From a virus (taxonomy: Duplodnaviria > Caudoviricetes), in IMG/VR virus record IMGVR_UViG_3300048611_000078, positions 1 through 42,660 of that record: a DNA stretch of 42,660 nucleotides; one strand, written 5' to 3'. A program made the translations under genes and the position numbers. Positions 6,179 to 41,385 of the stretch are shown in pieces. Position 1 is the stretch's first letter, and every line of letters starts with the position of its first letter. The notes beneath the pieces were generated by a model, which saw only the letters and a list, made by a program, of their open reading frames with translations, did no database searches and was not told the origin of the DNA.

Positions 6179-7006
6179 ATGAAGATTTCTGAATCGCAAA
6201 AAAAACAACAGAAACTTTTCGAGTCTTTTTTAAATGGCGCGATTACTTGGCAGACATTCCCAGACAAGGAAGCCGACAAGGGTGACAAAAGGTTTAAGCT
6301 CACACGGGTTGAGCACGGCACCTTGACGCAATTAGGTGAAAAACTGAATTACCTTAACGGGCAAGGCGCCGGGGTGTACGCTGTGGTGAATGAGACAAAC
6401 GGCAAAGGGAGAAAGGCCGAAGATGTGGTGAGGGTTCGGTGTGTGTTCGTTGACCTTGATGGCGCACCACTTGACCCGGTGCTTGACGATATGCCGGACA
6501 TGGTGGTGGAAACCTCAAAAGGGAAATATCATGCCTACTGGCGCATTGCTGATTGTCCGCTGGCAGGATTCAAACAGGTGCAACAAAGTATCGCGGCGAA
6601 GTACAACGGAGACCCGAAGGTTTGTGATCTTCCACGGGTGATGCGTTTTCCAGGATTCTACCACCACAAGCATGAGCCTTTTTTATCCACAATTGTTTAC
6701 CGGCCCGAGCCAAACATGATAACCTTTGCTGAGGCGTGCGAGAAGTGGCCGCCACCAGCTCGAAAATTATTTTCCGCCCCCAAGTATGCTCCGACTGCCA
6801 GCGTCGATTTTAAGGGGTCTTACGGTGCCTCCGCTGGCAATAGAAATTGCCACGTTACGCGACGCTTATGCGGTGCCATATCAAGAGGGGTCAGGGGGAG
6901 CGACCTGTGGAACGAGGCGTTGCGGGAGGGGCTGGCGTGTGATCCTCCTTTGCCAGAGCACGAGATACAGTCAATTTTTAATTCTGTTTCCAGATATGGC
7001 GGGTGA
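6179..7006 (+). CDS. RepB-type DNA primase with PriCT-like C-terminus
   Basis: VFVDLD, VETSKGKYHAYW, DLPRVMRFPG motifs; GNRN...CDPPLPEHE C-terminus. Confidence 0.85.
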   Translation: MKISESQKKQQKLFESFLNGAITWQTFPDKEADKGDKRFKLTRVEHGTLTQLGEKLNYLNGQGAGVYAVVNETNGKGRKAEDVVRVRCVFVDLDGAPLDPVLDDMPDMVVETSKGKYHAYWRIADCPLAGFKQVQQSIAAKYNGDPKVCDLPRVMRFPGFYHHKHEPFLSTIVYRPEPNMITFAEACEKWPPPARKLFSAPKYAPTASVDFKGSYGASAGNRNCHVTRRLCGAISRGVRGSDLWNEALREGLACDPPLPEHEIQSIFNSVSRYGG

Positions 7007-7007
7007 A

Positions 7008-9359
7008 ATGTTTAAATTTCCAGAAACAAAATTACGCGATTACCAAGGAGAAACCGTGCGGCAGGCGCGGGAATTTTTTAGGCAAGGGAAGAAGAGGCTG
7101 GTTATCATGCTGGCGACGGCGTCGGGAAAGACGGTTATCAGTACCCACATGATAAAGCAGGCGGCGGCTAAAGGCCTGCGGTGTGGGTTTGTATGTGATA
7201 GGATAGAGCTTATCAACCAAACATCCGCACGGCTGGATATGGAGGGCGTGTCCCATGGGGTAATTCAAGGGGATCATCCGCGTTATGATCCCGCAGAGCA
7301 AGTACAAGTTTGTTCTATCCAAACACTGGCCCGTAGAAAGACGAAACAGTTTGACCTGATCATTGTGGATGAATGTTTTGATGGCGAAACATTGGTGCAG
7401 ACAGTGAGCGGCCCGAAGCCAATAAAACTTGTGCACAGCGGAGACATGGTATATAATGCGCTTGGAGTAGGGGAAGTAATATCCGTAAGCGCCCGGCCGC
7501 TGGGTGAACGCAAACTTTTTAACGTGAGGTTTTCGGATGGGACACAATCCAGGTGTACAGGAGAACACAGATTTTTTACAGGCGGATCATGGGTGCAGAC
7601 CAGGGAGTTGGAGGGAAAAAGCGTTGTCAGCTTCCAAGACTTGTCCTGTGTGCGGGGTTGTGTTCAAGCCATGGGCGAGACAGGGGAAAGACGGGAGGAT
7701 GAACATACTGTCACAAAAACAGTGGGTTGTGCAAACGTGTTGCTCGAAGTCTTGCTCGAAGAAGCTGACAAACCCCATGTTTTCAGAGAAGGTCAGGGAA
7801 AAACAGTCGGCCACACTCAAAAGAATAGGACACAAGCCGCCGGTGCGAGGGGGAAACGGCATGGGGATGACAAAACCACAAGGGGAATTACTCAAGGCGC
7901 TGGGACCGGGGTGGGTTGCGGAACATGTGGTGAAAACCCACCTAAAAGCAGCAGACGGGTATCCCCATCACTACAAGGTGGATATAGCAAATCCGAAAAA
8001 GATGATTGTTATAGAGGTGGACGGGAAGTCGCACAACTTGTTATCAAGAAGGGCGCAAGATGCGAAAAAAACTGCGCTATTGGTGAAATTAGGGTGGTCA
8101 GTGTACAGGCTGAAGAATGCAGCCGCACTACAGTTGTCTACAATCTCGGAGTCAGCGGACACCCTTCTTATTTCGCTAATGGCAAGCTAGTCCACAATTG
8201 CCAGACCTTCCATACTGCCCACAAACGTCTAATGGCAGACAACGAGGGAAGTTTCATCATCGGTCTTTCCGCAACCCCATTCACAAAAGGGCTTGGCAAA
8301 CATTTTGACGGCCTTATCTCGCCGGTGACAGCCAAACAGCTCATCGCGCAGGGGCACCTGGTGGGATTCAAGGTATTTGGTCCTCGGACCATTGACGTGA
8401 CGGGGATAAAAATAGTCGCAGGGGATTACGACCAGACAGAACTTGGCGAGCGAGCCGACAAGCCAAAGATCGTTGCGGATATCGTCAAGACGTGGCTGGA
8501 AAAAGGCGGAAACCGGCAGACGATATGTTTTGCCACAAACGTGGCGCATTCAAAGCATATCGTGCGGGAGTTTCAAAAGGCGGGAGTGCTGGCGGAGCAC
8601 ATCGACTCATTCACCGATAAAGACACCAGGGCGGCGGTATTAAGGCGGCTGGCAAACTTTGAAACCCGGATTGTCTCATGCGTGGACATTCTGACAAAGG
8701 GTTTTGATTGCCCGGTAGTTTCCTGCATCATCCAGGCCCTGCCCACAAAGTCATTGATGCGCCATATTCAGCAAATCGGGCGGGGGCTTCGCACGTCACA
8801 AGGAAAAACAGAGTGCTGCATTTTGGACCACGCCGGGAACCATGAACGGCTCGGCTTTATTGACGATATAGAATTTACCGAGCTTGATGATGGGAAAAAG
8901 AAGGAGGCAAGCTCCAAGAAAGCAAAGGATAAGCCGGAAAAGTTGCCGTTAGTGTGTCCATCGTGCGACTACATGAAGCCAGCGGGGGTAAGGAAGTGCC
9001 CGGCGTGTGGATTGATAGCGGAACATATTGCAGACGTAGAAACAGAAGAAGGGGAACTGCGAGAGGTCAAGAGAAACCGGAAGGGGTATACTCTGGCGCA
9101 AAAGCAAGCGTTCTTGGCCGGGTTGAACTCATATGCAGTTGAAAAGGGGTTCAGAATAGGGCGGGGAGGGGTGTATGGGTGGAGCCTGCATAAGTACAAG
9201 GACTTTTTCGGTTGTGATCCATGCTCAAAAATAGAATGGGGGGCACGGGGTCCGATTGGTGAAGATGTGCGGAAATTCATCACACATGTAAATATAAAAT
9301 GGGCAAAATCAAAAGAGAGAAAACCAGAAAGCGCATTAAGCGGATGGCAGAACGATTAG
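7008..9359 (+). CDS. SF2 (Res/RadD-like) DNA helicase containing an intein
   Basis: LRDYQ, ATASGKT, VDE-[intein]-CQ, LSATP, GFD, QQIGRGLR, C-terminal zinc ribbon; start 7008 (or 6996). Confidence 0.9.
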   Translation: MFKFPETKLRDYQGETVRQAREFFRQGKKRLVIMLATASGKTVISTHMIKQAAAKGLRCGFVCDRIELINQTSARLDMEGVSHGVIQGDHPRYDPAEQVQVCSIQTLARRKTKQFDLIIVDECFDGETLVQTVSGPKPIKLVHSGDMVYNALGVGEVISVSARPLGERKLFNVRFSDGTQSRCTGEHRFFTGGSWVQTRELEGKSVVSFQDLSCVRGCVQAMGETGERREDEHTVTKTVGCANVLLEVLLEEADKPHVFREGQGKTVGHTQKNRTQAAGARGKRHGDDKTTRGITQGAGTGVGCGTCGENPPKSSRRVSPSLQGGYSKSEKDDCYRGGREVAQLVIKKGARCEKNCAIGEIRVVSVQAEECSRTTVVYNLGVSGHPSYFANGKLVHNCQTFHTAHKRLMADNEGSFIIGLSATPFTKGLGKHFDGLISPVTAKQLIAQGHLVGFKVFGPRTIDVTGIKIVAGDYDQTELGERADKPKIVADIVKTWLEKGGNRQTICFATNVAHSKHIVREFQKAGVLAEHIDSFTDKDTRAAVLRRLANFETRIVSCVDILTKGFDCPVVSCIIQALPTKSLMRHIQQIGRGLRTSQGKTECCILDHAGNHERLGFIDDIEFTELDDGKKKEASSKKAKDKPEKLPLVCPSCDYMKPAGVRKCPACGLIAEHIADVETEEGELREVKRNRKGYTLAQKQAFLAGLNSYAVEKGFRIGRGGVYGWSLHKYKDFFGCDPCSKIEWGARGPIGEDVRKFITHVNIKWAKSKERKPESALSGWQND
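7374..8198 (+). mobile_element. Intein (275 aa) inserted in helicase motif II
   Basis: Block A CFDGETLV, block B TGEHRF, block F VYNLGV, block G SYFANGKLVHN followed by Cys+1. Confidence 0.92.
7537..8190 (+). CDS. DUF559/Vsr-like PD-(D/E)XK endonuclease overprinted in the +1 frame of the intein
   Basis: CPVC...CCSKSC zinc motif; YKVDIA...IVIEVDGKSH...D..K...L..LGWSVYR; likely start TTG 7624 with GGAGG at 7610-7614. Confidence 0.8.
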   Translation: MGHNPGVQENTDFLQADHGCRPGSWREKALSASKTCPVCGVVFKPWARQGKDGRMNILSQKQWVVQTCCSKSCSKKLTNPMFSEKVREKQSATLKRIGHKPPVRGGNGMGMTKPQGELLKALGPGWVAEHVVKTHLKAADGYPHHYKVDIANPKKMIVIEVDGKSHNLLSRRAQDAKKTALLVKLGWSVYRLKNAAALQLSTISESADTLLISLMAS

Positions 9360-9368
9360 GAGCAGAAA

Positions 9369-9596
9369 ATGAAAATGGGGATTTCGGTCAAGATGGACGT
9401 GACAAAGCTCGACAAGACGAAGTTTTTTGTTGGGAAAAAAGGGACGTATGCCGACCTTACTGTTTTCTTGGACACCGAGGAAACAAGCGAATACGGGGAT
9501 AACGGCACCGTGGCGCAATCGGCCAGCAAAGAAGACCGTGATGCAGGGAAGAAGATGCCGATACTGGGAAATGTTAAGGTTTTTTACAAGGCATAA
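9369..9596 (+). CDS. Small conserved phage protein, possibly ssDNA-binding
   Basis: AGGAG SD; KLDK...GKKGTY.DL...YG...Q..SKE.R...PILGN pattern. Confidence 0.65.
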   Translation: MKMGISVKMDVTKLDKTKFFVGKKGTYADLTVFLDTEETSEYGDNGTVAQSASKEDRDAGKKMPILGNVKVFYKA

Positions 9597-9702
9597 TCCG
9601 CAGATTACTAGCGGGGGAACTCACCACCGACCAGGCGGAAGCAATACAACGCATGACGAATCGGGAAATAGCGCATTTGATAAGGAGGGAGGGGAGATAA
9701 TG
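9512..9702 (+). repeat. 191-bp inverted repeat, copy 1 (partner 38901-39091)
   Basis: Ungapped manual alignment, about 31 mismatches (~84% identity). Confidence 0.9.
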
Positions 9703-10062: not shown

Positions 10063-10149
10063 TTTCGAGGGGGGAAGCCAGGCGACCGCGCCTGTGAACT
10101 ACGAAAATGCCCGGTGCTACTCGCGGTCGCATGGGGTGATTGGTTAAAC
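10063..10149 (-). mobile_element. attC-like site A1 (R' box degenerate)
   Basis: Minus strand: GTTTAAC-caatc-ACCCCAT-GCGACCGCG...CGCGGTCGC-CTGGCT; no GTT at the R' position. Confidence 0.65.
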
Positions 10150-10158
10150 TGGAGACTT

Positions 10159-10482
10159 ATGAAAATTGACATGATTTATGTGTGGGCTGCCGGTTTGCTG
10201 CTGGTGATGTTGTTTCAGAATTTTTTCACCGTTAAAAAGACTGATTATGACGTTTCGTACTCCTACACCACAAACGAAATGGGCTACATCGCCTACGGGC
10301 AGACAACGATTGTTTGCACCGGTAATGCCGATCTTGATTGGGCATCGCTTCGCGTCTGGCTGGTGAAGGACGTTAAAGCTCGGACTGGCGAGGATTCGGC
10401 CGTTGTGACGGTGCTTGGAACAAATAAGCGCGATAGTGACAGATATTGGCGGCCATTCTGGATGGTTATTTCTTCTGTTTAA
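10159..10482 (+). CDS. Cassette-borne membrane-anchored protein
   Basis: GGAG SD; N-terminal TM helix; stop TAA lies within the R' box of site A2. Confidence 0.7.
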   Translation: MKIDMIYVWAAGLLLVMLFQNFFTVKKTDYDVSYSYTTNEMGYIAYGQTTIVCTGNADLDWASLRVWLVKDVKARTGEDSAVVTVLGTNKRDSDRYWRPFWMVISSV

Positions 10483-10564
10483 CGCCTAAATTACCGCGAC
10501 CGCGCCACCGTTGGCTGGTGATATGGCAGGGCTACTCGCGGTCGCGCTGAATTTTTTGTTAAAC
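10477..10564 (-). mobile_element. Intact attC-like site A2 (88 bp)
   Basis: Minus strand: R'' GTTTAAC-aaaaa-L'' ATTCAGC-GCGACCGCG...CGCGGTCGC-L' GGTAAT-ttaggc-R' GTTAAAC, matching canonical attC spacing. Confidence 0.85.
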
Positions 10565-10578
10565 GACTAGGGGAAATC

Positions 10579-10782
10579 ATGAGTAACAGCAGAACGTTGG
10601 CCGCAGCAATGACAATGATGGTGGTGGGTGCAGGAGCTTTAGAAGTGCTTCAATACCAGGCGCCATACCGCGATGTTTCCGATCCGTACAGCCATAAGAG
10701 CGGCAGGAAAAGGAACAGATGGAAAAAAGACTTATTGATTAAGGGCAAACGATTAAAAAGCAAATACTGCCTGCCTCGGTGA
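10579..10782 (+). CDS. Cassette-borne small basic protein
   Basis: AGGGG SD; stop 1 nt before the R' box of site A3. Confidence 0.6.
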   Translation: MSNSRTLAAAMTMMVVGAGALEVLQYQAPYRDVSDPYSHKSGRKRNRWKKDLLIKGKRLKSKYCLPR

Positions 10783-10783
10783 C

Positions 10784-10817
10784 GTTTAACGACAGAAATA
10801 ACGGGCGGCTTTAGCCG
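10784..10817 (-). mobile_element. attC-like half-site A3 (L'-R' arm only)
   Basis: Minus strand: CGGCTAAAGCCGCCC-GTTATT-tctgtc-GTTAAAC. Confidence 0.6.
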
Positions 10818-10847
10818 GACACCACCAGCCGCCGAAAAGGAGATTGC

Positions 10848-11168
10848 TTGAGCCGCAAGAAACCAATTACCCCGAATAGCCAAATACGCTCCGCGCTCCG
10901 GCAGCTTTTTCTCCGCAGCCGCGAACGGGCGAAGTGCATAAAAGATGCGCAGGGCACATGCTCCTGTGGAAAGAAGCAGAGCAAGGCCAAGGGGCGCGAA
11001 GTGAAGATCAACGTGCATCATGTCCATGGGATAGATTGGGATGGCCTGATTGATTTGGTGCGTGAAAGGCTACTTAGTGGAGAAATGGTGGTCAAGTGTT
11101 TGGATTGCCATGACAGGGAGCACACGGAAAAGGCCGGGTCAGATTGCGGAGAACCTGACCCGGCTTGA
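10848..11168 (+). CDS. HNH-type (NinG-like) nuclease
   Basis: CSC...VHH...CLDCH..EH; AAGGAG SD, TTG start. Confidence 0.6.
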   Translation: MSRKKPITPNSQIRSALRQLFLRSRERAKCIKDAQGTCSCGKKQSKAKGREVKINVHHVHGIDWDGLIDLVRERLLSGEMVVKCLDCHDREHTEKAGSDCGEPDPA

Positions 11169-16369: not shown

Positions 16370-18433
16370 GTGGACGGATCGACGATAGAAAACCTGCTTA
16401 GATTTGCCAAGATGGACAATGTGTCCCCTGAGATTAAAGATGAGAATCTCATCAAGATCGGGCGCGATGTTGTCCGCCTGTACAAGATAGACGAAGATAG
16501 CCGCGAAGACTGGAAGAAGCGGTCCCAAGATGCGATGGCCCTTGCGCTGCAAGTTACAAAGAAGAAAGATTTCCCCTTTGAGAACGCCTCACAAGTTAAA
16601 TATCCCCTCCTCACCACCTCCGCACTTCAATTCCATGCCAGATGCTACCCGGCAGTAATCCAGGGCGATAAGGTAATAAAGTTCCGCGTTACCGGCGAAG
16701 ACCCTGAAGGCGAGAAGAGCAAGCGGGCCGTGCGGTGCGCTCAGTTCATGAATTGGCAGCTACTGTTCCAACAGGAAGAATGGGAAGAGCAGTTCGACCG
16801 GCTCCTGCTGGCCCTGCCTATCGAGGGGTGCGAGTTCAAAAAATCGTTTTATGATCCCACCCTTGGCCGAAATGTATCTGAGTGGATCAGGCCGGATGAC
16901 TTTGTAGTCCACAACAAGACAAAGAGCTTGGCCGTTTGCCCCAGGATGACCCACAGGCTGTATTTCTACCCGCACGAGATAGAGGTGCGGCAATCGTCTG
17001 GGTTATGGGTTGACGTAAACCTGGAAATCAGTAAAACGGACGAAGATGAAGAGACTCAGCAATGCTTCCTTGAGCAACACTGCTTGTTGGACCTTGACGA
17101 GGATGGGGTCAAAGAGCCGTGGTGCGTGACCGTCCACGAGCAATCGCAGAAGGTTGTGAGGATCAAGGCCGGGTTCTACCCCGAGGATATCTGGATCAAT
17201 CTGGACGAAATGAAACGGCTTGGAGATATTGACGCATCTGTCCCTGCTGAAGCGGTTTTCGGTGCCCAGGTTGTTAAGATTGACCGCATTCAGTATTTCA
17301 CCAAGTATTCGTTCATCCCCTCGCCCGATGGAGGCTTTTATGATGTTGGGTTCGGCCAGCTTATCGGGCCGCTGTCAGACACCATTGATACCACGATAAA
17401 CCAAATCATCGACGCGGGCACGTTGGCTAATACTCAGGGCGGATTTGTCCGTGAGGGGGTTAGTGTCGGTGGCGGGCGTGGCTCAATCCGGTTTGCCATG
17501 GGCGAGTTTAAGCAGATTCGCATCCCCTCGGCCATGCCTATAAGTCAAGCGATGCAGCCAATGATTTTCCCTGGCCCGTCCGCCGTTCTATTTCAGATGT
17601 TGGAAATGCTGATTCAATCAGTCCGCGATATTACCGGGGTGCAAGACATTAACGTAGGCGCAACCCCGCAGAACGAGACCGCCACCACCACCATGATTCG
17701 GGTGGAAGAGGGAGCGAAGGTTTTTACCGCAATTTACAAGCGCATCTGGCGGGCGATGAAGGAAGAGTTTGCGAAGCTGTACAAGCTGAACAGTATTTAT
17801 TTGCAGCCGGAAACGTATTTTACGGTTCTTGATTCCAACGAACAAGGGGTTGTGTCTCTCCAAGACTTCAGGGGAGAATCTACCGACATACAGCCCGTTG
17901 CAGACCCGACCATCGCGACCACTCAACAGAGAATCGCAAAGGCCGAGTTGTTGATGGGGCAAATGGGTAACCCGCTCACCAACAAAGAGGAAATCACTCG
18001 CCGCTACTTGGAGGCCGCAGAGATTAGTGGCGTTGACAAGGTAATTATCCCGGAAGATCAGCGGCAAGTCCCGCCCGATCCAAAGATAGAGCTTGCCGCC
18101 ATGAAACAACGCGACGAGGCAAGAGAGTCAGAGGCGCGGGTGCTAAACCTGTACGCCAAGACGCTTGAGGCGTTTGCAAATGCGGAATCAAAGGAAGTAG
18201 GGAGCCAGCTTGATCAGTACAGGCTGGAGCTTGAAGCATTAAGAACCCAGATAGAGGCAGGCGATGCTAACAAAGGAAGAGTTGCAGGAATGGAAGGCGC
18301 ACCCGACGACCAAGGCGGTGTTCCACCGGCTGAAGAGTTACCAGCAGGTATTGACGCAGGAATGCTTGGAGGCGGGGAACCTGGACAAGGACCAGGCATG
18401 GCGATTGGTGGTGGAGAACAAGGCGAAGTTTGA
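16370..18433 (+). CDS. Portal protein (P22-like podovirus)
   Basis: ~690 aa after TerL; FPFENASQVKYPLL, FYDVGFG, ATTT motifs; C-terminal coil; AAGGAG then GTG 16370. Confidence 0.85.
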   Translation: MDGSTIENLLRFAKMDNVSPEIKDENLIKIGRDVVRLYKIDEDSREDWKKRSQDAMALALQVTKKKDFPFENASQVKYPLLTTSALQFHARCYPAVIQGDKVIKFRVTGEDPEGEKSKRAVRCAQFMNWQLLFQQEEWEEQFDRLLLALPIEGCEFKKSFYDPTLGRNVSEWIRPDDFVVHNKTKSLAVCPRMTHRLYFYPHEIEVRQSSGLWVDVNLEISKTDEDEETQQCFLEQHCLLDLDEDGVKEPWCVTVHEQSQKVVRIKAGFYPEDIWINLDEMKRLGDIDASVPAEAVFGAQVVKIDRIQYFTKYSFIPSPDGGFYDVGFGQLIGPLSDTIDTTINQIIDAGTLANTQGGFVREGVSVGGGRGSIRFAMGEFKQIRIPSAMPISQAMQPMIFPGPSAVLFQMLEMLIQSVRDITGVQDINVGATPQNETATTTMIRVEEGAKVFTAIYKRIWRAMKEEFAKLYKLNSIYLQPETYFTVLDSNEQGVVSLQDFRGESTDIQPVADPTIATTQQRIAKAELLMGQMGNPLTNKEEITRRYLEAAEISGVDKVIIPEDQRQVPPDPKIELAAMKQRDEARESEARVLNLYAKTLEAFANAESKEVGSQLDQYRLELEALRTQIEAGDANKGRVAGMEGAPDDQGGVPPAEELPAGIDAGMLGGGEPGQGPGMAIGGGEQGEV

Positions 18434-18476
18434 CGTGGTTCAGGATATTTTCGACACGGAGGCAGACAATGAATAA
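18264..18476 (+). CDS. Small head-module protein overlapping the portal 3' end
   Basis: GAGG SD; MLTKEELQEWKAHPTTK; overlaps GroES start. Confidence 0.6.
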   Translation: MLTKEELQEWKAHPTTKAVFHRLKSYQQVLTQECLEAGNLDKDQAWRLVVENKAKFDVVQDIFDTEADNE

Positions 18477-18780
18477 AAGCGGCATCAAGCCTATGGAGTA
18501 CAAAATCCTCGTTGAGCCTGTGAAGGTTGAGGAAAAGACAGCGGGCGGTATTTATCTCCCCGACCAGGTGAAGGACAAGAACAAGTTTGCCAATGATGAG
18601 GGCACTATTATTGCGGTTGGCCCTATTGCATTCACCGACCCGCACTGGCTGGAATGCCCGAAGGTTGGCGACAAGGTAATGTTTGATCGGTACGCAGGCA
18701 TTCTCGTTAAAGGAAAAGACGAGAATGAATACCGGATCATCAACGACAAGGAAATTTGTGCAATATTGGAGGAAGTATGA
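18469..18780 (+). CDS. groES: Co-chaperonin GroES (Cpn10)
   Basis: IKPMEYKILV...EEKTAGGIYLP...GTIIAVGP...KVGDKVMF..YAG...YRII.DKEI.AI. Confidence 0.92.
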   Translation: MNKSGIKPMEYKILVEPVKVEEKTAGGIYLPDQVKDKNKFANDEGTIIAVGPIAFTDPHWLECPKVGDKVMFDRYAGILVKGKDENEYRIINDKEICAILEEV

Positions 18781-29098: not shown

Positions 29099-29569
29099 AT
29101 GAAGATTGTGCCTATCGAGCATAAGCATTATGCGGAATTATTTCGCGTCACCTCCATATGCGAACCGTGGTGGGGACTAGATAGAAATACCAGCGATAGG
29201 CTTTTTTCAAAAAGGGAAGGATTTGTACTTATTGCAGAATCTGGATCAGACGAGGGGAAGGTGGTTGGGCATATAACACTGTCTGACTACACTGTAAAAC
29301 TTGATGTTTTTATTCATTGCTCAATATTGCCTGAATACCAAAGAAGATGGCTTAACAAGACCATATATCGAACAGTTTTCGATTATGTTTTCAATGTTCT
29401 TGAGTGTGTAAGGGCAACCGGGTGGGCAACAGAGGGGCTTAATGACCTTACCTTCCATGAACGATTGGGGTTTAAGAGAGAAGGAGTTCACCGGCAGAAT
29501 TTACGAATAAAAGACAAATATTACGACATGCACTATTTTGGGATGCTCAAAAATGAACGCCGCTGGTAG
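29099..29569 (+). CDS. GNAT-fold acetyltransferase-like protein (P22 gp14 position)
   Basis: FDYVFNVL...ERLGFKREG..R...FGML..E. Confidence 0.75.
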   Translation: MKIVPIEHKHYAELFRVTSICEPWWGLDRNTSDRLFSKREGFVLIAESGSDEGKVVGHITLSDYTVKLDVFIHCSILPEYQRRWLNKTIYRTVFDYVFNVLECVRATGWATEGLNDLTFHERLGFKREGVHRQNLRIKDKYYDMHYFGMLKNERRW

Positions 29570-30590
29570 AATTTTATTTGTTATATACGCTGCCCCAATA
29601 GCGTATAGTCACGGAGTTGCGGTGTTGTCTAGTATTTTAAAAAAAGCAGGATTTCATACTGATATTTTTATAGCGAACGGGAACCTTGAATTATTCAAAA
29701 CAATTATTTCTGAAAATTGGGCTGCTATTTGTTTTTCTAACTGTATAAAAAAAGATTTTGATCTTAGTATTAAATATATTGATGCGGCTATAGAGTCTGG
29801 GCATGAGACAATACTTGGTGGTACATACCACAGAAGAAACAACCCTAATAAATATGACGGGGTATTGAAAATTTGTCGAGGAGACGGTGAAACATTAACA
29901 GATTATTTCATTGGTGGAAATGCAGCCGTTTTTGACAAAAGGTTAGTTCAACAGGACTTAGACTGTTTGCCAATGGCAGACTATGAAATATTTAAAAATA
30001 TCCCATTTGACGGACATATAAAAGACTTTCCAGAAATGAAAAAATTACCGTACACCGTTTCTCGTGGTTGCATCGGTAAGTGCAAGTTTTGCGAAGTGCA
30101 ACACCAAGAAGGGGGAGTTAGAATACGCAGAAGCTCGGTAGATGATATTAAATACTTAACAAACAGATACAACCCCGATCTTTTGTTTTTCACAGATGAG
30201 CTTTTCCCATATTACGACCAAAGATATATGGAAGATTTTTTGCCCTCAATAAAAAAACCATATTTTGCTTTTATTAGGGCAGACATTAAGGCCGACATGC
30301 TAAAAAACATGATTTCGTCGGGAATGATTGGTTGTGCATTTGGTGTGGAATGCGGGGATGAGAAGTACAGGAACGATATTTTGTGCAAGGGGATTACCGA
30401 TGAAGAAGTACACAGAACGGCAGGTATATTAAAAAGTAACGGAACGTATTTTGCCCACTTTTATATGATAAATATGGAAGGCGAAAGTTTTATGATGAAG
30501 AAAAAAACTGACGATATGGCCATGTCTTTAGGTGGCACACCGATGGTTTTTGACTATACAGCAGTAAAATATCAAACGAGAGGTTGCTAA
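29553..30590 (+). CDS. Radical SAM protein, B12-binding (class B)-like
   Basis: ILGG.Y, RGDGE, LD.LP, SRGCIGKCKFC (CxxxCxxC), FTDE, FGVECG; AT-rich. Confidence 0.85.
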   Translation: MNAAGRILFVIYAAPIAYSHGVAVLSSILKKAGFHTDIFIANGNLELFKTIISENWAAICFSNCIKKDFDLSIKYIDAAIESGHETILGGTYHRRNNPNKYDGVLKICRGDGETLTDYFIGGNAAVFDKRLVQQDLDCLPMADYEIFKNIPFDGHIKDFPEMKKLPYTVSRGCIGKCKFCEVQHQEGGVRIRRSSVDDIKYLTNRYNPDLLFFTDELFPYYDQRYMEDFLPSIKKPYFAFIRADIKADMLKNMISSGMIGCAFGVECGDEKYRNDILCKGITDEEVHRTAGILKSNGTYFAHFYMINMEGESFMMKKKTDDMAMSLGGTPMVFDYTAVKYQTRGC

Positions 30591-36399: not shown

Positions 36400-36773
36400 C
36401 CGTTCTTTTTGCGCCGCCTGATTATTGGATGCTCACCAAAGACCAACGCGCCGACATTTCTAATGGTTGCGGGACCAGGGGGCTTCTTGGTCTTTTGGTC
36501 CCGGATACGGTATATTTTCTATCAATAAAAAGTGCTTGCGATATACACGATTTCATGTACGCTATTGGTATAAACATTAAAGACAAGCAGGAAGCAGACC
36601 GGGTTTTCCTTAACAACATGATGCGCATCATAGACCATGAAACAAGATGGGACTGGCTAAAGGTTTTAAGGTTGCGCCGGGCGAAAACCTACTATCAAGC
36701 CGTGAAGAATTTTGGAGGGTTGGCATTTTGGAGTGGAAAAAACGCACCAGAGAACAAGGGAGGATACGCATGA
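36396..36773 (+). CDS. DUF1353-like / phospholipase A2-like protein
   Basis: NGCG...ACDIHDFMY...ADRVFL...YYQAVKNFG. Confidence 0.65.
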   Translation: MTVLFAPPDYWMLTKDQRADISNGCGTRGLLGLLVPDTVYFLSIKSACDIHDFMYAIGINIKDKQEADRVFLNNMMRIIDHETRWDWLKVLRLRRAKTYYQAVKNFGGLAFWSGKNAPENKGGYA

Positions 36774-36967
36774 ACCAGCTTACCATCGACCACGACAAGT
36801 GCAACAGATGCGGGGCGTGTGAATTCACCCTGAAAAACCTCCACGAGAAGGCCATAGACGGTCGCTTGTTTGTTTCCGACACAAACCTACGAAAGCATGC
36901 AACAGAGATCACCACGGCTATCGTATCGTGCAAGAATGATGCGCTATACCTTTCGCTGGCACTGTAA
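36770..36967 (+). CDS. Ferredoxin-like single-cluster Fe-S protein
   Basis: IDHDKCNRCGAC...AIVSCKNDAL; GGAGG SD. Confidence 0.6.
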   Translation: MNQLTIDHDKCNRCGACEFTLKNLHEKAIDGRLFVSDTNLRKHATEITTAIVSCKNDALYLSLAL

Positions 36968-37356
36968 TGGCTACCAGCAAGGACCAGGCCGCTTTTCTCC
37001 TGGACGTGTGCAAGCTGATCCAATTCGCAACTTCCCTCGGCTGGCGAGTAACTGAGGGGGAATTCAAGCGAACCCCAGAACAGCAGAAAATCTACTTTGA
37101 CAAGGGCCTGTCAAAAACCCTGAACAGCAGACACCTTGTCGGCATGGCCGCAGACCTCAACTTCATTCGTGAATCTGACGGGCTGTATATCGGGGCGCTG
37201 AAAACCAGGGCGGCGCTCGGGATGCTCCGCCCTGTTGGCGAATTCTGGGAGTCGCTTTCACCGCTTAACAGGTGGGGCGGGAACTTTGACCGGGATTGGT
37301 CAAGAGACGATAGCTTTCATGATGCACCTCATTTTGAGCGTTTTGATTCAAGATGA
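36967..37356 (+). CDS. Endolysin, M15 L-Ala-D-Glu peptidase family
   Basis: RTPEQQ, SRHLVGMAAD, RWGGNF, DAPHFE. Confidence 0.88.
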   Translation: MATSKDQAAFLLDVCKLIQFATSLGWRVTEGEFKRTPEQQKIYFDKGLSKTLNSRHLVGMAADLNFIRESDGLYIGALKTRAALGMLRPVGEFWESLSPLNRWGGNFDRDWSRDDSFHDAPHFERFDSR

Positions 37357-37429
37357 GCAGTAAAGCCTACCGGCAAAAGCACCAGGAGCAGGGCCATTTT
37401 AGGACCACTCGCAATAACCAAGGACATTA

Positions 37430-37518
37430 TAAATACAAGGCACTTCACCGGAAGCCGGGAAGCTGGGCGTTTTTATCTGGTCATTCATTGGCGGCTCCGG
37501 TGAGTTGCCTGGTTATAA
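37430..37518 (+). mobile_element. attC-like site B1 (R'' AAC changed to TAC)
   Basis: TAAATAC-aaggc-ACTTCAC-CGGAAGCCG...CGGCTCCG-GTGAGT-tgcctg-GTTATAA; two extrahelical bases at canonical positions. Confidence 0.8.
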
Positions 37519-38196
37519 TGCCTGTGCCAGCACGTGGTTTCCGAGCCGCGAGTCAACACAATTCCTCAAAACTTGTCGCTTGTTCGGTATCCTGTATATA
37601 TCGAGCGACAACCCCAGTTCGTTTTCCCAATCACTTATTTTGTTCTTGTCCCTAATCCCTGCCGCTGGTAGTTTAATGTCAGGTATATCAAAGTTTGCCC
37701 AAAAATAATGTCTCGCTACTTTTTGCGGATTCACCAGCGGCTCGTAATAACTGATTGTGTTTTCTACAACCCACTTCCCTTCATGGTGGTACTGCAAAAA
37801 TATAATTTCCTCGTACAAAGCCATATCCGGGAAAACTCCCTTGTAGCCCTTTGCCCTCACACCCACGTTATAGCGATACTGCCCATGCGTAGGACACGGC
37901 GGTGATGTCCATATCAGGTCAAACTCTGCATAGTGTTCAAGCAGGTAAGCGTGTGCATCTCCAACAACAACAATATCATCGGGGAATCTATCTTGATAGG
38001 CTCTTGCAATTTCAGGCTCTCGCTCTACCGCAGTTACTTTTACATTGCCAGGCCACAACGCCCTATTGCCGCCAATTCCAGCATATAGGTTAAGCGCATT
38101 ATAACAAGGCGCTACACCTGAAAACATGGGGCTGGCGTTCTCGGGTTGTGCGGCGTTCGGTGTTTCCGGTGTTTCAATCATGTCCATTTTCCCCAT
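37513..38196 (-). CDS. DNA (cytosine-5) methyltransferase, cassette-borne
   Basis: NLYAGIGG (motif I), WTSPPC (IV), VVEN (VI); stop in the R' box of B1; start inside B2. Confidence 0.85.
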   Translation of the reverse strand: MGKMDMIETPETPNAAQPENASPMFSGVAPCYNALNLYAGIGGNRALWPGNVKVTAVEREPEIARAYQDRFPDDIVVVGDAHAYLLEHYAEFDLIWTSPPCPTHGQYRYNVGVRAKGYKGVFPDMALYEEIIFLQYHHEGKWVVENTISYYEPLVNPQKVARHYFWANFDIPDIKLPAAGIRDKNKISDWENELGLSLDIYRIPNKRQVLRNCVDSRLGNHVLAQAL

Positions 38197-38222
38197 GTTT
38201 CAGGTGACCAGCAACGTTAGCT
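38099..38222 (+). mobile_element. Intact attC-like site B2 (124 bp)
   Basis: TTATAAC-aaggc-GCTACAC-CTGAAAACATGGGG...CCCCATGTTTCAG-GTGACC-agcaac-GTTAGCT. Confidence 0.85.
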
Positions 38223-38450
38223 ATCAAATCCAAAAAGGATTGCTTCGTTAAATTCAACCATTTCATCAAAAGTTTTAACCAGCTTGCCGTTTGAAAGCAA
38301 AAACATTATCGGCATTAGCACAACCCACGAAAGAGGGATAATCCACCACCCCAAAAGACAAAATCGAATGCAAAAAAAGAAACAGCTAACCATGCGTTCA
38401 AGAATCGACGCGCGAATCTCCGGGTTTGTTTGTCGTGGTCTGCAAGTCAT
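38217..38450 (-). CDS. Cassette-borne small membrane protein
   Basis: GAGGAG SD; hydrophobic core; stop TAA in the R' box of B2. Confidence 0.65.
   Translation of the reverse strand: MTCRPRQTNPEIRASILERMVSCFFFCIRFCLLGWWIIPLSWVVLMPIMFLLSNGKLVKTFDEMVEFNEAILFGFDS
38384..38420 (+). mobile_element. attC-like half-site B3 (R''-L'' arm only)
   Basis: AGCTAAC-catgc-GTTCAAG; R'' is the exact complement of GTTAGCT at 38216. Confidence 0.7.
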
Positions 38451-38465
38451 AGCGTTCTATCTCCT

Positions 38466-38723: not shown

Positions 38724-38903
38724 TCAAAACAAATCATGTTCATCGTCAAAAACGCCATCCACCAGGCAGGCTTCCATCGCGTCCCACCATTCATCGTCGC
38801 ACTGCTTTTCCCAACACTCTTGACACCCGCCCCACAAAATATCGCCCCCAATGCTGAGCGGCCAGTTGTCTGTGTTCTCTTTCAAGCAATTCGGGCATAT
38901 CAT
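38724..38903 (-). CDS. Small acidic Cys-containing protein
   Basis: AGGAGG SD; CPNC...GCQECW. Confidence 0.6.
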   Translation of the reverse strand: MICPNCLKENTDNWPLSIGGDILWGGCQECWEKQCDDEWWDAMEACLVDGVFDDEHDLF

Positions 38904-39091
38904 TGTCTCCCCTCCTTGTGTATCATCCACGCAATCTCACGATCAAACATGCGCTGCAAACCTTCCGCCTGGTCGGTGGTGAGTTGTCCGGCCAGTAATC
39001 GGCGGATTATGCCTTATAAAAAACCTTAACATTTCCGACTATTGGCATCTTCTTCCCTGCATCACGGTCCTCTTTGCTGGCCGATTGCGCC
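38901..39091 (-). repeat. 191-bp inverted repeat, copy 2 (partner 9512-9702)
   Basis: Reverse complement aligns without gaps to 9512-9702. Confidence 0.9.
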
Positions 39092-39253
39092 CCGCCTGTG
39101 GTCCCTCCCCACAAGTGCGGGGCGGTTTCATGATTACGGCAAATGTGAACCATAAAAGAACAGGAACAACCCAATTAAAAGACCGCATATAATTGCTACA
39201 CAGATAGTAAACGAATTCAAAATCCACCCTCCCCACTTGTGCTGGGCTGTTTT

Positions 39254-41295: not shown

Positions 41296-41385
41296 AGCAT
41301 ACAGAATCCACGATATTCTGTCAACCAAAAAAACAATAAAACATTGCGAATAAAATATTGACAAAGGTTGTTTTTGTGATAAGGT
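41296..41385. promoter_or_regulatory. Divergent early promoters with a palindromic operator candidate
   Basis: Leftward TTGACA-N17-TATGCT (41324-41296) containing CAGAAT-N7-ATTCTG; rightward TTGACA-N16-TAAGGT (41358-41385). Confidence 0.65.

Follow-up and report, generated by a model that had tools for sequence, protein, structure and literature searches.

Known phage arrays and related systems

The closest described systems are the phage CALINs of Qi et al. (2023), who reported 17 such arrays, with five methylase cassettes, and recombination by IntI1 at five of the six sites tested (PMC9892861). Like the locus described here, these arrays have attC-type sites without a phage integrase and methyltransferases among their cargo, for which an anti-restriction role was proposed (PMC9892861). 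In PH101, two sites recombined with IntI1, the bottom strand more than the top (PMC9892861). We located four sites in this array (KR534323, 75921-77987; our locus L248), and their bottom strand is the strand of all 12 annotated genes there, i.e. these sites are also antisense to the genes. In P12002L attC1 is inverted and attC2 canonical, and the TJE1 array is canonical. P12002L attC1 was the only site to fail with IntI1, and attC2 worked (PMC9892861). By our analysis the failure of attC1 would count against an action of IntI on inverted sites, whereas PH101 would count in favour of it. The published arrays differ from ours in that the tested sites are short (PMC9892861), while here a methylase gene has no start outside its site. 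The text of that article mentions neither genes antisense to sites nor starts inside sites. Our literature searches, which mostly did not extend to subscription journals, found no description of inverted phage cassettes or of starts inside their sites.

The cassettes of class 1 integrons and of chromosomal arrays share several features with this locus, namely the R''-L''-loop-L'-R' layout, extrahelical bases in one arm and a TTRRRY start complementary to the cassette's own R''. Here, in contrast, the coding strand is the bottom strand, so that the site precedes its own gene, with the stop codon supplied by the core and the start codon by the loop. Top-strand insertion can flip a whole cassette, but the gene does not thereby become antisense to its own site (PMC5027507). 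In ORF-11 and ORF-18 of attI1 and in the short ORFs of attC sites, a recombination site likewise lends translation signals to a cassette gene (PMC8876359). Those ORFs are, however, separate top-strand leader peptides lent by the platform or by the upstream neighbour (PMC8876359), unlike the start described here, which is fused in frame, lies on the bottom strand and belongs to the gene's own site. Lastly, orphan phage C5 methyltransferases (PHROG 363, PF00145) have the same fold and catalytic-type motifs as the protein of this locus; the subgroup with the junction described below differs from them by taking its first residues from a recombination site.

A phage array of inverted sites

The stretch of DNA analysed, called the window, is the whole 42,660-base phage record IMGVR_UViG_3300048611_000078, which is 91% complete according to CheckV. 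Its ends overlap by 132 bases with two mismatches, within a pentapeptide-repeat gene. The 69 ORFs scanned include genes for terminase, portal, capsid, head-closure, primase, helicase, single-strand annealing and lysis proteins, and the phage also encodes NinB. No Rfam family was detected anywhere in the window. Other observations are a weak intein match in the helicase ORF (6726-9359; PF14890, residues 262-491, under the cut-off), a GroES-like gene adjoining the portal gene (18430-18780), an acetyltransferase and a radical SAM gene amid virion genes (29099-30590) and a small ferredoxin-like frame beside the lysin gene (36772-36967). Small genes run leftward from 41241 to 37513 and converge on the endolysin gene; the methylase gene and its array, which we call array B, stand at the far end of this run. 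The region has the following features:

36967-37356, plus strand: endolysin (peptidase M15), converging on array B
37430-37518, plus strand: site B1, with a damaged R'' (37430-37436), L'' (37442-37449), L' (37499-37505) and an intact R' (37512-37518)
37513-38216, plus strand: cassette 1, 704 bp, made of the core TTATAAT, the inverted methylase gene and its own site B2 through the G of R'
37513-38196, minus strand: small C5-cytosine methyltransferase-like ORF, 227 aa from its first ATG, with its stop codon (TTA) at 37513-37515
38099-38222, plus strand: site B2, a complete 124-nt attC-like hairpin, with R'' (38099-38105), L'' (38111-38118), L' (38203-38209) and R' (38216-38222)
38179-38181, minus strand: likely start codon of the methylase, at residue 6, in the B2 hairpin loop
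38217-38450, minus strand: cassette 2 and its 77-aa ORF, which reads through L''/R'' of B3 and ends at the core TTA (38217-38219)
38384-38460, plus strand: site B3, with R'' (38384-38390), L'' (38396-38403) and a bare GTT at 38454
41296-41324, minus strand: Sigma70-like promoter match heading the leftward small-gene run that ends in array B (matches by consensus only, with 6 found against 7.1 expected by chance)

Sites were called with a purpose-written scanner of attC anatomy and with our own model of the B2 family. The scanner found three sites in the window, B1 and B2 on the plus strand and a site of a second array, array A, on the minus strand (10477-10564); 100 dinucleotide shuffles of the window gave 17 matches in total and never three. 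Polarity was assigned from the 5-nt R''-L'' spacer and the two unpaired bases in the left arm, a rule that placed TJE1 attC2, used as a control, on the strand implied by the published bottom-strand oligonucleotide. B1 and B2 each have this 5-nt spacer, an 8-nt L'' with one extra base, a 6-nt L'-R' spacer and GTT. The second unpaired base is in the same arm as the extra L'' base, which gives both sites the two extrahelical bases in the R''/L'' arm that mark the bottom strand. Both of these columns vary within the B2 family. The first extrahelical base in L'' of B2 is T and not the usual G, which we counted against the site; PH101 attC2 shares this T.

B2 follows the attC layout throughout, with an RYYYAAC R'', a GTTRRRY R', spacers of 5 nt and 5-8 nt and six of seven pairs in the L box, while B1 departs from it at R'' and B3 at L'/R'. 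The loop of B2 is 59 nt long; the start codons are on the bottom strand of the site, which is also the coding strand. At 124 nt the site falls inside the published length range of 57-141 nt (PMC5371416). Lying 580 bases apart, B1 and B2, as called by the scanner and the model, correspond to the definition of a CALIN, i.e. at least two attC sites on the same strand within a few kb and no intI. In the window record no intI and attI were found beside the array, nor was a Pc. No PF00589 match indicative of a tyrosine recombinase was present in this 91%-complete record, and no tyrosine recombinase was found in five related, incomplete records. By its anatomy B2 is a putative attC site, and array B is a CALIN, not a complete integron.

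Folding of the bottom strand gave z-scores of -4.1 for B1 and -1.7 for B2 (11 of 200 shuffles were as good), and that of the top strand of B2 gave -2.8. The fold energies of the bottom and top strands are -19.3 vs -23.1 kcal/mol for B2 and -18.4 vs -18.9 kcal/mol for B1, so that at neither site is the bottom strand at least as stable as the top. A more stable bottom strand is usual as a statistical trend (PMC5027507) but is no strict rule, and B2 runs opposite to that trend.

The outer sites are damaged. B1, in the gap between the lysin and methylase genes, which converge on it, has its crossover G|TT at 37512/37513 and scores 29.9 bits against the B2-family model. An ATG in its loop opens a 29-codon frame on the minus strand, which is probably the remnant of another inverted cassette. 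The initial annotation took the damaged R'' of B1 for an AAC to TAC change. This is one possible reading; a 3-nt insertion, with a predicted fold that bulges three nucleotides and then resumes pairing, or a junction with moved DNA would also fit. For B3, reported to lack its right arm, we found no pairing arm anywhere downstream, be it absent or decayed, and no fold above chance (z 0.8 and 0.3). The loss of outer arms at array ends likely reflects their lack of coding content.

The methylase and its start codon

By profile, motifs and predicted fold, the ORF of cassette 1 is a small C5-type methylase. It matches PHROG 363 (E 2.5e-10) and PADLOC MTase_II (E 1.5e-5), and its PF00145 score, 21.3 bits, is just under the cut-off of 22. 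In an alignment of 40 sequences, G40/G42/G43, P99/P100 and E145/N146 are invariant and C101 nearly so. We take the glycines to be the SAM-binding motif, and P99/P100/C101 and E145/N146 the catalytic Pro-Cys and Glu-Asn motifs. Foldseek matched the structure model (pLDDT 82) to DNMT3A/B, DNMT2 and M.HhaI, and the best folds were those of C5 methylases, with TM about 0.5. The model shows disorder at residues 8-28 and a first beta strand that begins at residue 32, which R'' encodes. The core has about 195 residues, and a target-recognition domain would find little space in the protein, which counts against a methylase. We nevertheless regard it as a likely orphan cytosine methylase whose role would be to guard the phage genome against restriction.

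B2 encodes residues 1-32 of the ORF. Between this site and the first methylase motif there is no ATG in frame; as the gene has no start at the usual place, its translation likely begins within B2. Among the four candidate ATGs in the predicted mRNA, that at 38181 is the most unpaired (0.84) and has the best anti-SD pairing (-5.5 kcal/mol), while the first ATG of B2 is fully paired. Since the second ATG is the most accessible and the best placed for a ribosome-binding site, about 27 residues are likely encoded by B2, not 32, for a protein of 222 aa. The initial annotation, which had the ORF begin inside the B2 loop, is supported as to the site and less so as to the codon, as the sixth residue is a likelier start than the first. 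The TTA at 37513-37515 is indeed the methylase stop codon on the minus strand, supplied by the core site, and the next ORF does read through L''/R'' of B3, both as first described.

Alternatively, the hairpins might be RNA elements, for translation control or termination, that merely resemble attC, and the paired first ATG would fit this. B1 lies between converging genes, has kept its stem despite its damaged R'' and may end transcription there, and B2 may link translation to that of the ORF upstream; effects of attC sites on translation have been reviewed (PMC8876359). Nevertheless, no terminator was called at B1, B2 or B3, a role as terminators only being among the findings that the initial annotation named as refuting it, and an RNA function leaves unexplained the fixed spacers, the extrahelical bases and the complementarity with a sequence 600 bases away. 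We regard this explanation as very improbable, though an RNA role secondary to the recombination role may exist.

A family of B2-like hairpins

Using B2-derived patterns, we collected a family of seven sites on six contigs, the window included, with 84% column identity (L214/L217 and L218/L227 were counted once each). Each of the seven sites has two ATGs, 15 bases from each other, whose frame continues through the stem and into the adjacent gene; at two of the sites the loop is one base shorter and another frame is used through the stem. The genes that follow code for the C5 methylase described above, two PHROG 67 methylases, a PHROG 874 protein, a protein with a weak PHROG 8828 match and two unknown proteins, so the same hairpin is found in frame with unrelated phage genes. 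The PHROG 67 methylase profile match begins at residue 35. On one contig (L231, 2982-4500) two PHROG 67 methylase cassettes stand in tandem, with near-identical B2-family hairpins and first 60 residues and different middles.

The arms of the family sites are paired in 93.8% of cells, compared with 28-44% when the arms are slid against each other. Covariation among the four distinct sites amounted to one double change, which is not above the shuffle control (131/500). A crude ORF-cover rule applied to 32 sequences called 18 of 21 sites inverted, which is no unbiased rate since the contigs were picked by likeness to B2 or to the methylase; the exceptions were TJE1, B1 and the array A site, the latter a near tie. 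Of 14 loci retrieved with a B2 stem pattern, 11 were unmatched by the model and discarded as chance finds, and the scanner found no site in three of the four loci of another search set. A generic arm pattern gave no matches.

Methylase homologues

The methylase was compared with its closest homologues, the best 120 of 7,631, one of which is the window protein itself. Among these 119, the top 16 (P0002-P0017) have a junction like that of the window, and 15 of the 16 share its C-terminal end residue. Their N-terminal extensions upstream of the junction are mutually unlike, and in three of the 16 the first motif is reached within 8 residues of a start. Of the other 103 sequences, by contrast, 98 begin no more than 8 residues ahead of that motif and none has the C-terminal end of the junction group. 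The extension is thus not common to homologues that lack the sites. The observation named at the outset as one that would overturn the proposal, homologues without flanking sites that nevertheless share the extension, was not made in this set. L113 agrees with this: it is 90% identical over residues 33-99 and has no hairpin but a short ATG start of its own.

Junction DNA was examined for few of the homologues. In L059 and L060 a different, 113-nt hairpin occupies the same junction with the same polarity, and L116 has the same 3' core. In these three contigs (L059 1020-1045, L060 1330-1355, L116 1490-1515), the methylase stop codon is followed by an R' core and a short A/T-rich box without a hairpin, an end that looks attI- or attG-like.

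Vibrio, Gordonia and Flavobacterium phages have relatives with a methyltransferase annotation, and the methylase family and the hairpin occur in viral contigs, phage records and unclassified metagenome contigs. The methylase gene was not found in plasmids. In GTDB genomes, a scan with exact peptide words, which is not exhaustive, gave five matches that are 42-49% identical, with no site detected at them. Searches of plasmids with B1 and B2, and of phage records with B2, returned nothing of use. The scanner detected no site in any of 58 viral methylase loci outside the junction subgroup (297 kb), nor in 81 methylase loci (594 kb), a set that included P12002L, whose published sites it missed, which indicates a limited sensitivity. 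A C-terminal junction pattern retrieved five loci, none of which encodes the methylase.

These searches bear on the origin first proposed for the cassette, namely that it was an inverted bacterial cassette captured whole, with decay of B1 and B3 selected as a lock and B2 left open for docking. Its outer sites are damaged and the inner one intact, bacterial cassettes with antisense genes exist (10.1101/2025.06.18.660453), and phage CALINs do carry methylases (PMC9892861). However, capture from a bacterial array found no support in the plasmids or in the distant, site-less GTDB matches. Locking and docking fared no better: B1 retains its crossover arm and its fold. Selection and drift are indistinguishable here, and outer arms of array A are missing at both ends as well, which plain decay of non-coding arms would explain. 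We consider this origin improbable.

The arms of the junction group are common within subgroups (P0012/15/16 and P0007/8/9). P0005 and P0013 are sisters (99/90; 93% core identity) whose arms are unrelated and whose junction is shifted; P0003 and P0121, with 98% core identity, have 12 junction residues in common and diverge above them. Such sister methylases with differing arms suggest, from protein sequence alone, that hairpins seem to be exchanged at times. A swap in the lineage of the window itself is not claimed: the branch joining the window to P0003 (99/95) fell to 87/55 in a smaller tree, and an AU test did not reject the grouping of the window with P0002, which shares its arm (p 0.39).

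Cassette ends and mobility

The first ten bases of cassette 1 are the reverse complement of the R'' end of its own site B2, compared with four matching bases in B2's partner in the array. The two complementary ends would come together only once the cassette is excised as a circle. In a modelled circle junction of cassette 1, B2 reaches -24.0 kcal/mol vs -16.4 in the array, a gain of 7.6. Together with the scanner sites, this match upholds the inverted cassette at 37513-38216 that the initial annotation had delimited. Cassette 2 has 7-base complementarity between its own ends, and its ORF has no homologue or family match. Both cassettes thus show the complementarity to their own R'' that typifies integron cassettes; the usual, though not universal, placement of the gene, on the top strand upstream of attC, is not seen, as both ORFs are on the bottom strand. 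Over 21 sites of related contigs, the match to the own end was better than that in the array in eight cases, equal in five, lower in five and unscored in three, one of the lower cases being a canonical control and the rule picking ORFs crudely. No second locus with cassette 1 intact was seen; homologues share both junctions but carry different hairpins.

The feature of array B is real and, as judged from these data, would work like an integron cassette built backwards. We think it probable that the hairpin and the methylase gene form one self-starting cassette moved by a host integron integrase. As the start likely lies in the B2 loop, hairpin and gene would move as one unit. The bottom-strand AAC of R' would be cleaved, as at known attC sites, releasing both, and the first bases of the cassette would supply the methylase stop codon. 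Reinsertion could take place at another G|TT core of a phage operon, where the cassette would put a ready ribosome-binding site and ATG under a phage promoter that transcribes the array starting at its far side. In the protein, R''-encoded residues would stand in for those that normally open the first beta strand, and the remaining extension would be a disordered tag. The integrase would probably be that of a host integron, acting on the phage cassette.

Alternatively, the sites might be fossils of integron cassettes, kept as translation-start leaders and shared linkers on which no integrase acts now; cassettes would then be exchanged between phages by homologous or single-strand-annealing recombination at the linkers. 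The lack of an integrase in the window record and its five incomplete relatives fits this explanation, as do the single-strand annealing protein and NinB of the phage and the loss of outer arms at both ends of both arrays. The pattern of P0003 and P0121 looks like an exchange inside the hairpin, and one related contig joins B1-like to B2-like arms (see below). On the other hand, the non-coding arm of the B2-family sites has been kept paired. Complementarity between own ends follows the cargo (10 bases for B2, 8 for L222 and 8 for L231), which homologous recombination would not select, and the inverted sites of PH101 are active with IntI1 (PMC9892861). On balance we find a fossil status unlikely, and favour a cassette mobilized by a host integrase.

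A broader and more tentative proposal is that phages keep their own pool of backwards cassettes, in which new cassettes arise when phage gene bodies are joined to attC hairpins at R'', and that host integrases shuffle the units between phages. The hairpin would then be a portable recombination site and translation start in one, and the gene would lose its own start. In that case the methylase subgroup, where a single pair of junctions goes with several hairpin arms unrelated to one another, would document how cassettes arise and how hairpins are exchanged. To our knowledge, how genes become integron cassettes is an open question. A single gene family would here offer a before-and-after comparison, with 103 ordinary, free-ended homologues and 16 cut back to the two junctions among the best 120 of 7,631. 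If IntI moves such units, phages would be users of integrons for counter-defence genes and not mere carriers of cassettes from bacteria, and the design would function from a phage promoter in the absence of an integron platform. In phages, annotation pipelines built on the assumption of sense-strand cassettes will link sites to the wrong gene.

Variation among related contigs and the second array

Contigs of four runs (X1 to X4) were compared with the window at 85% likeness; X1 may not be independent of the window record. The contigs depart from the window on either side of array B, at 37393 (X1, X2 and X3) and at 38463 (X4), and the block between thus differs among kin:

37394-38462, no strand: block varying among related contigs

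In X3, the new sequence past 37393 opens with a GTTRRRY core at 37394. X2 and X3 have no cover over the methylase, an absence to which we attach no weight. One X4 contig passes from 37461 to 38192 via 31 other letters that resemble a B2-family loop, thereby joining B1-like to B2-like arms; it could be a site without the methylase or the site of another phage. Joints in X2, X3 and X4 set 37391-37438, which includes the damaged R'' of B1, beside 39246-39249, weakly, as their sides are 45-48 letters long with unknown gaps. They suggest that the flank of B1 may be a moved piece rather than the result of a point mutation. A hydrophobic frame without a start codon is found at 39137-39253 in the window phage, and its kin place it beside 37391-37438; a small membrane-protein gene may thus have been split.

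Array A (10080-10860) has the same inverted polarity as array B, with its full site on the minus strand (10477-10564) between plus-strand ORFs. Of its outer sites, that at about 10080-10149 has no R'/L' arm and that at about 10781 no L''/R'' arm; in array A as in array B, the outer arms at either end are gone. A 194-base inverted duplication, with copies 84% alike, is found at 9509-9702 and 38901-39094, one copy upstream of each array. It comprises the final 29 codons of the ORF at 9369-9596 plus the DNA that follows.
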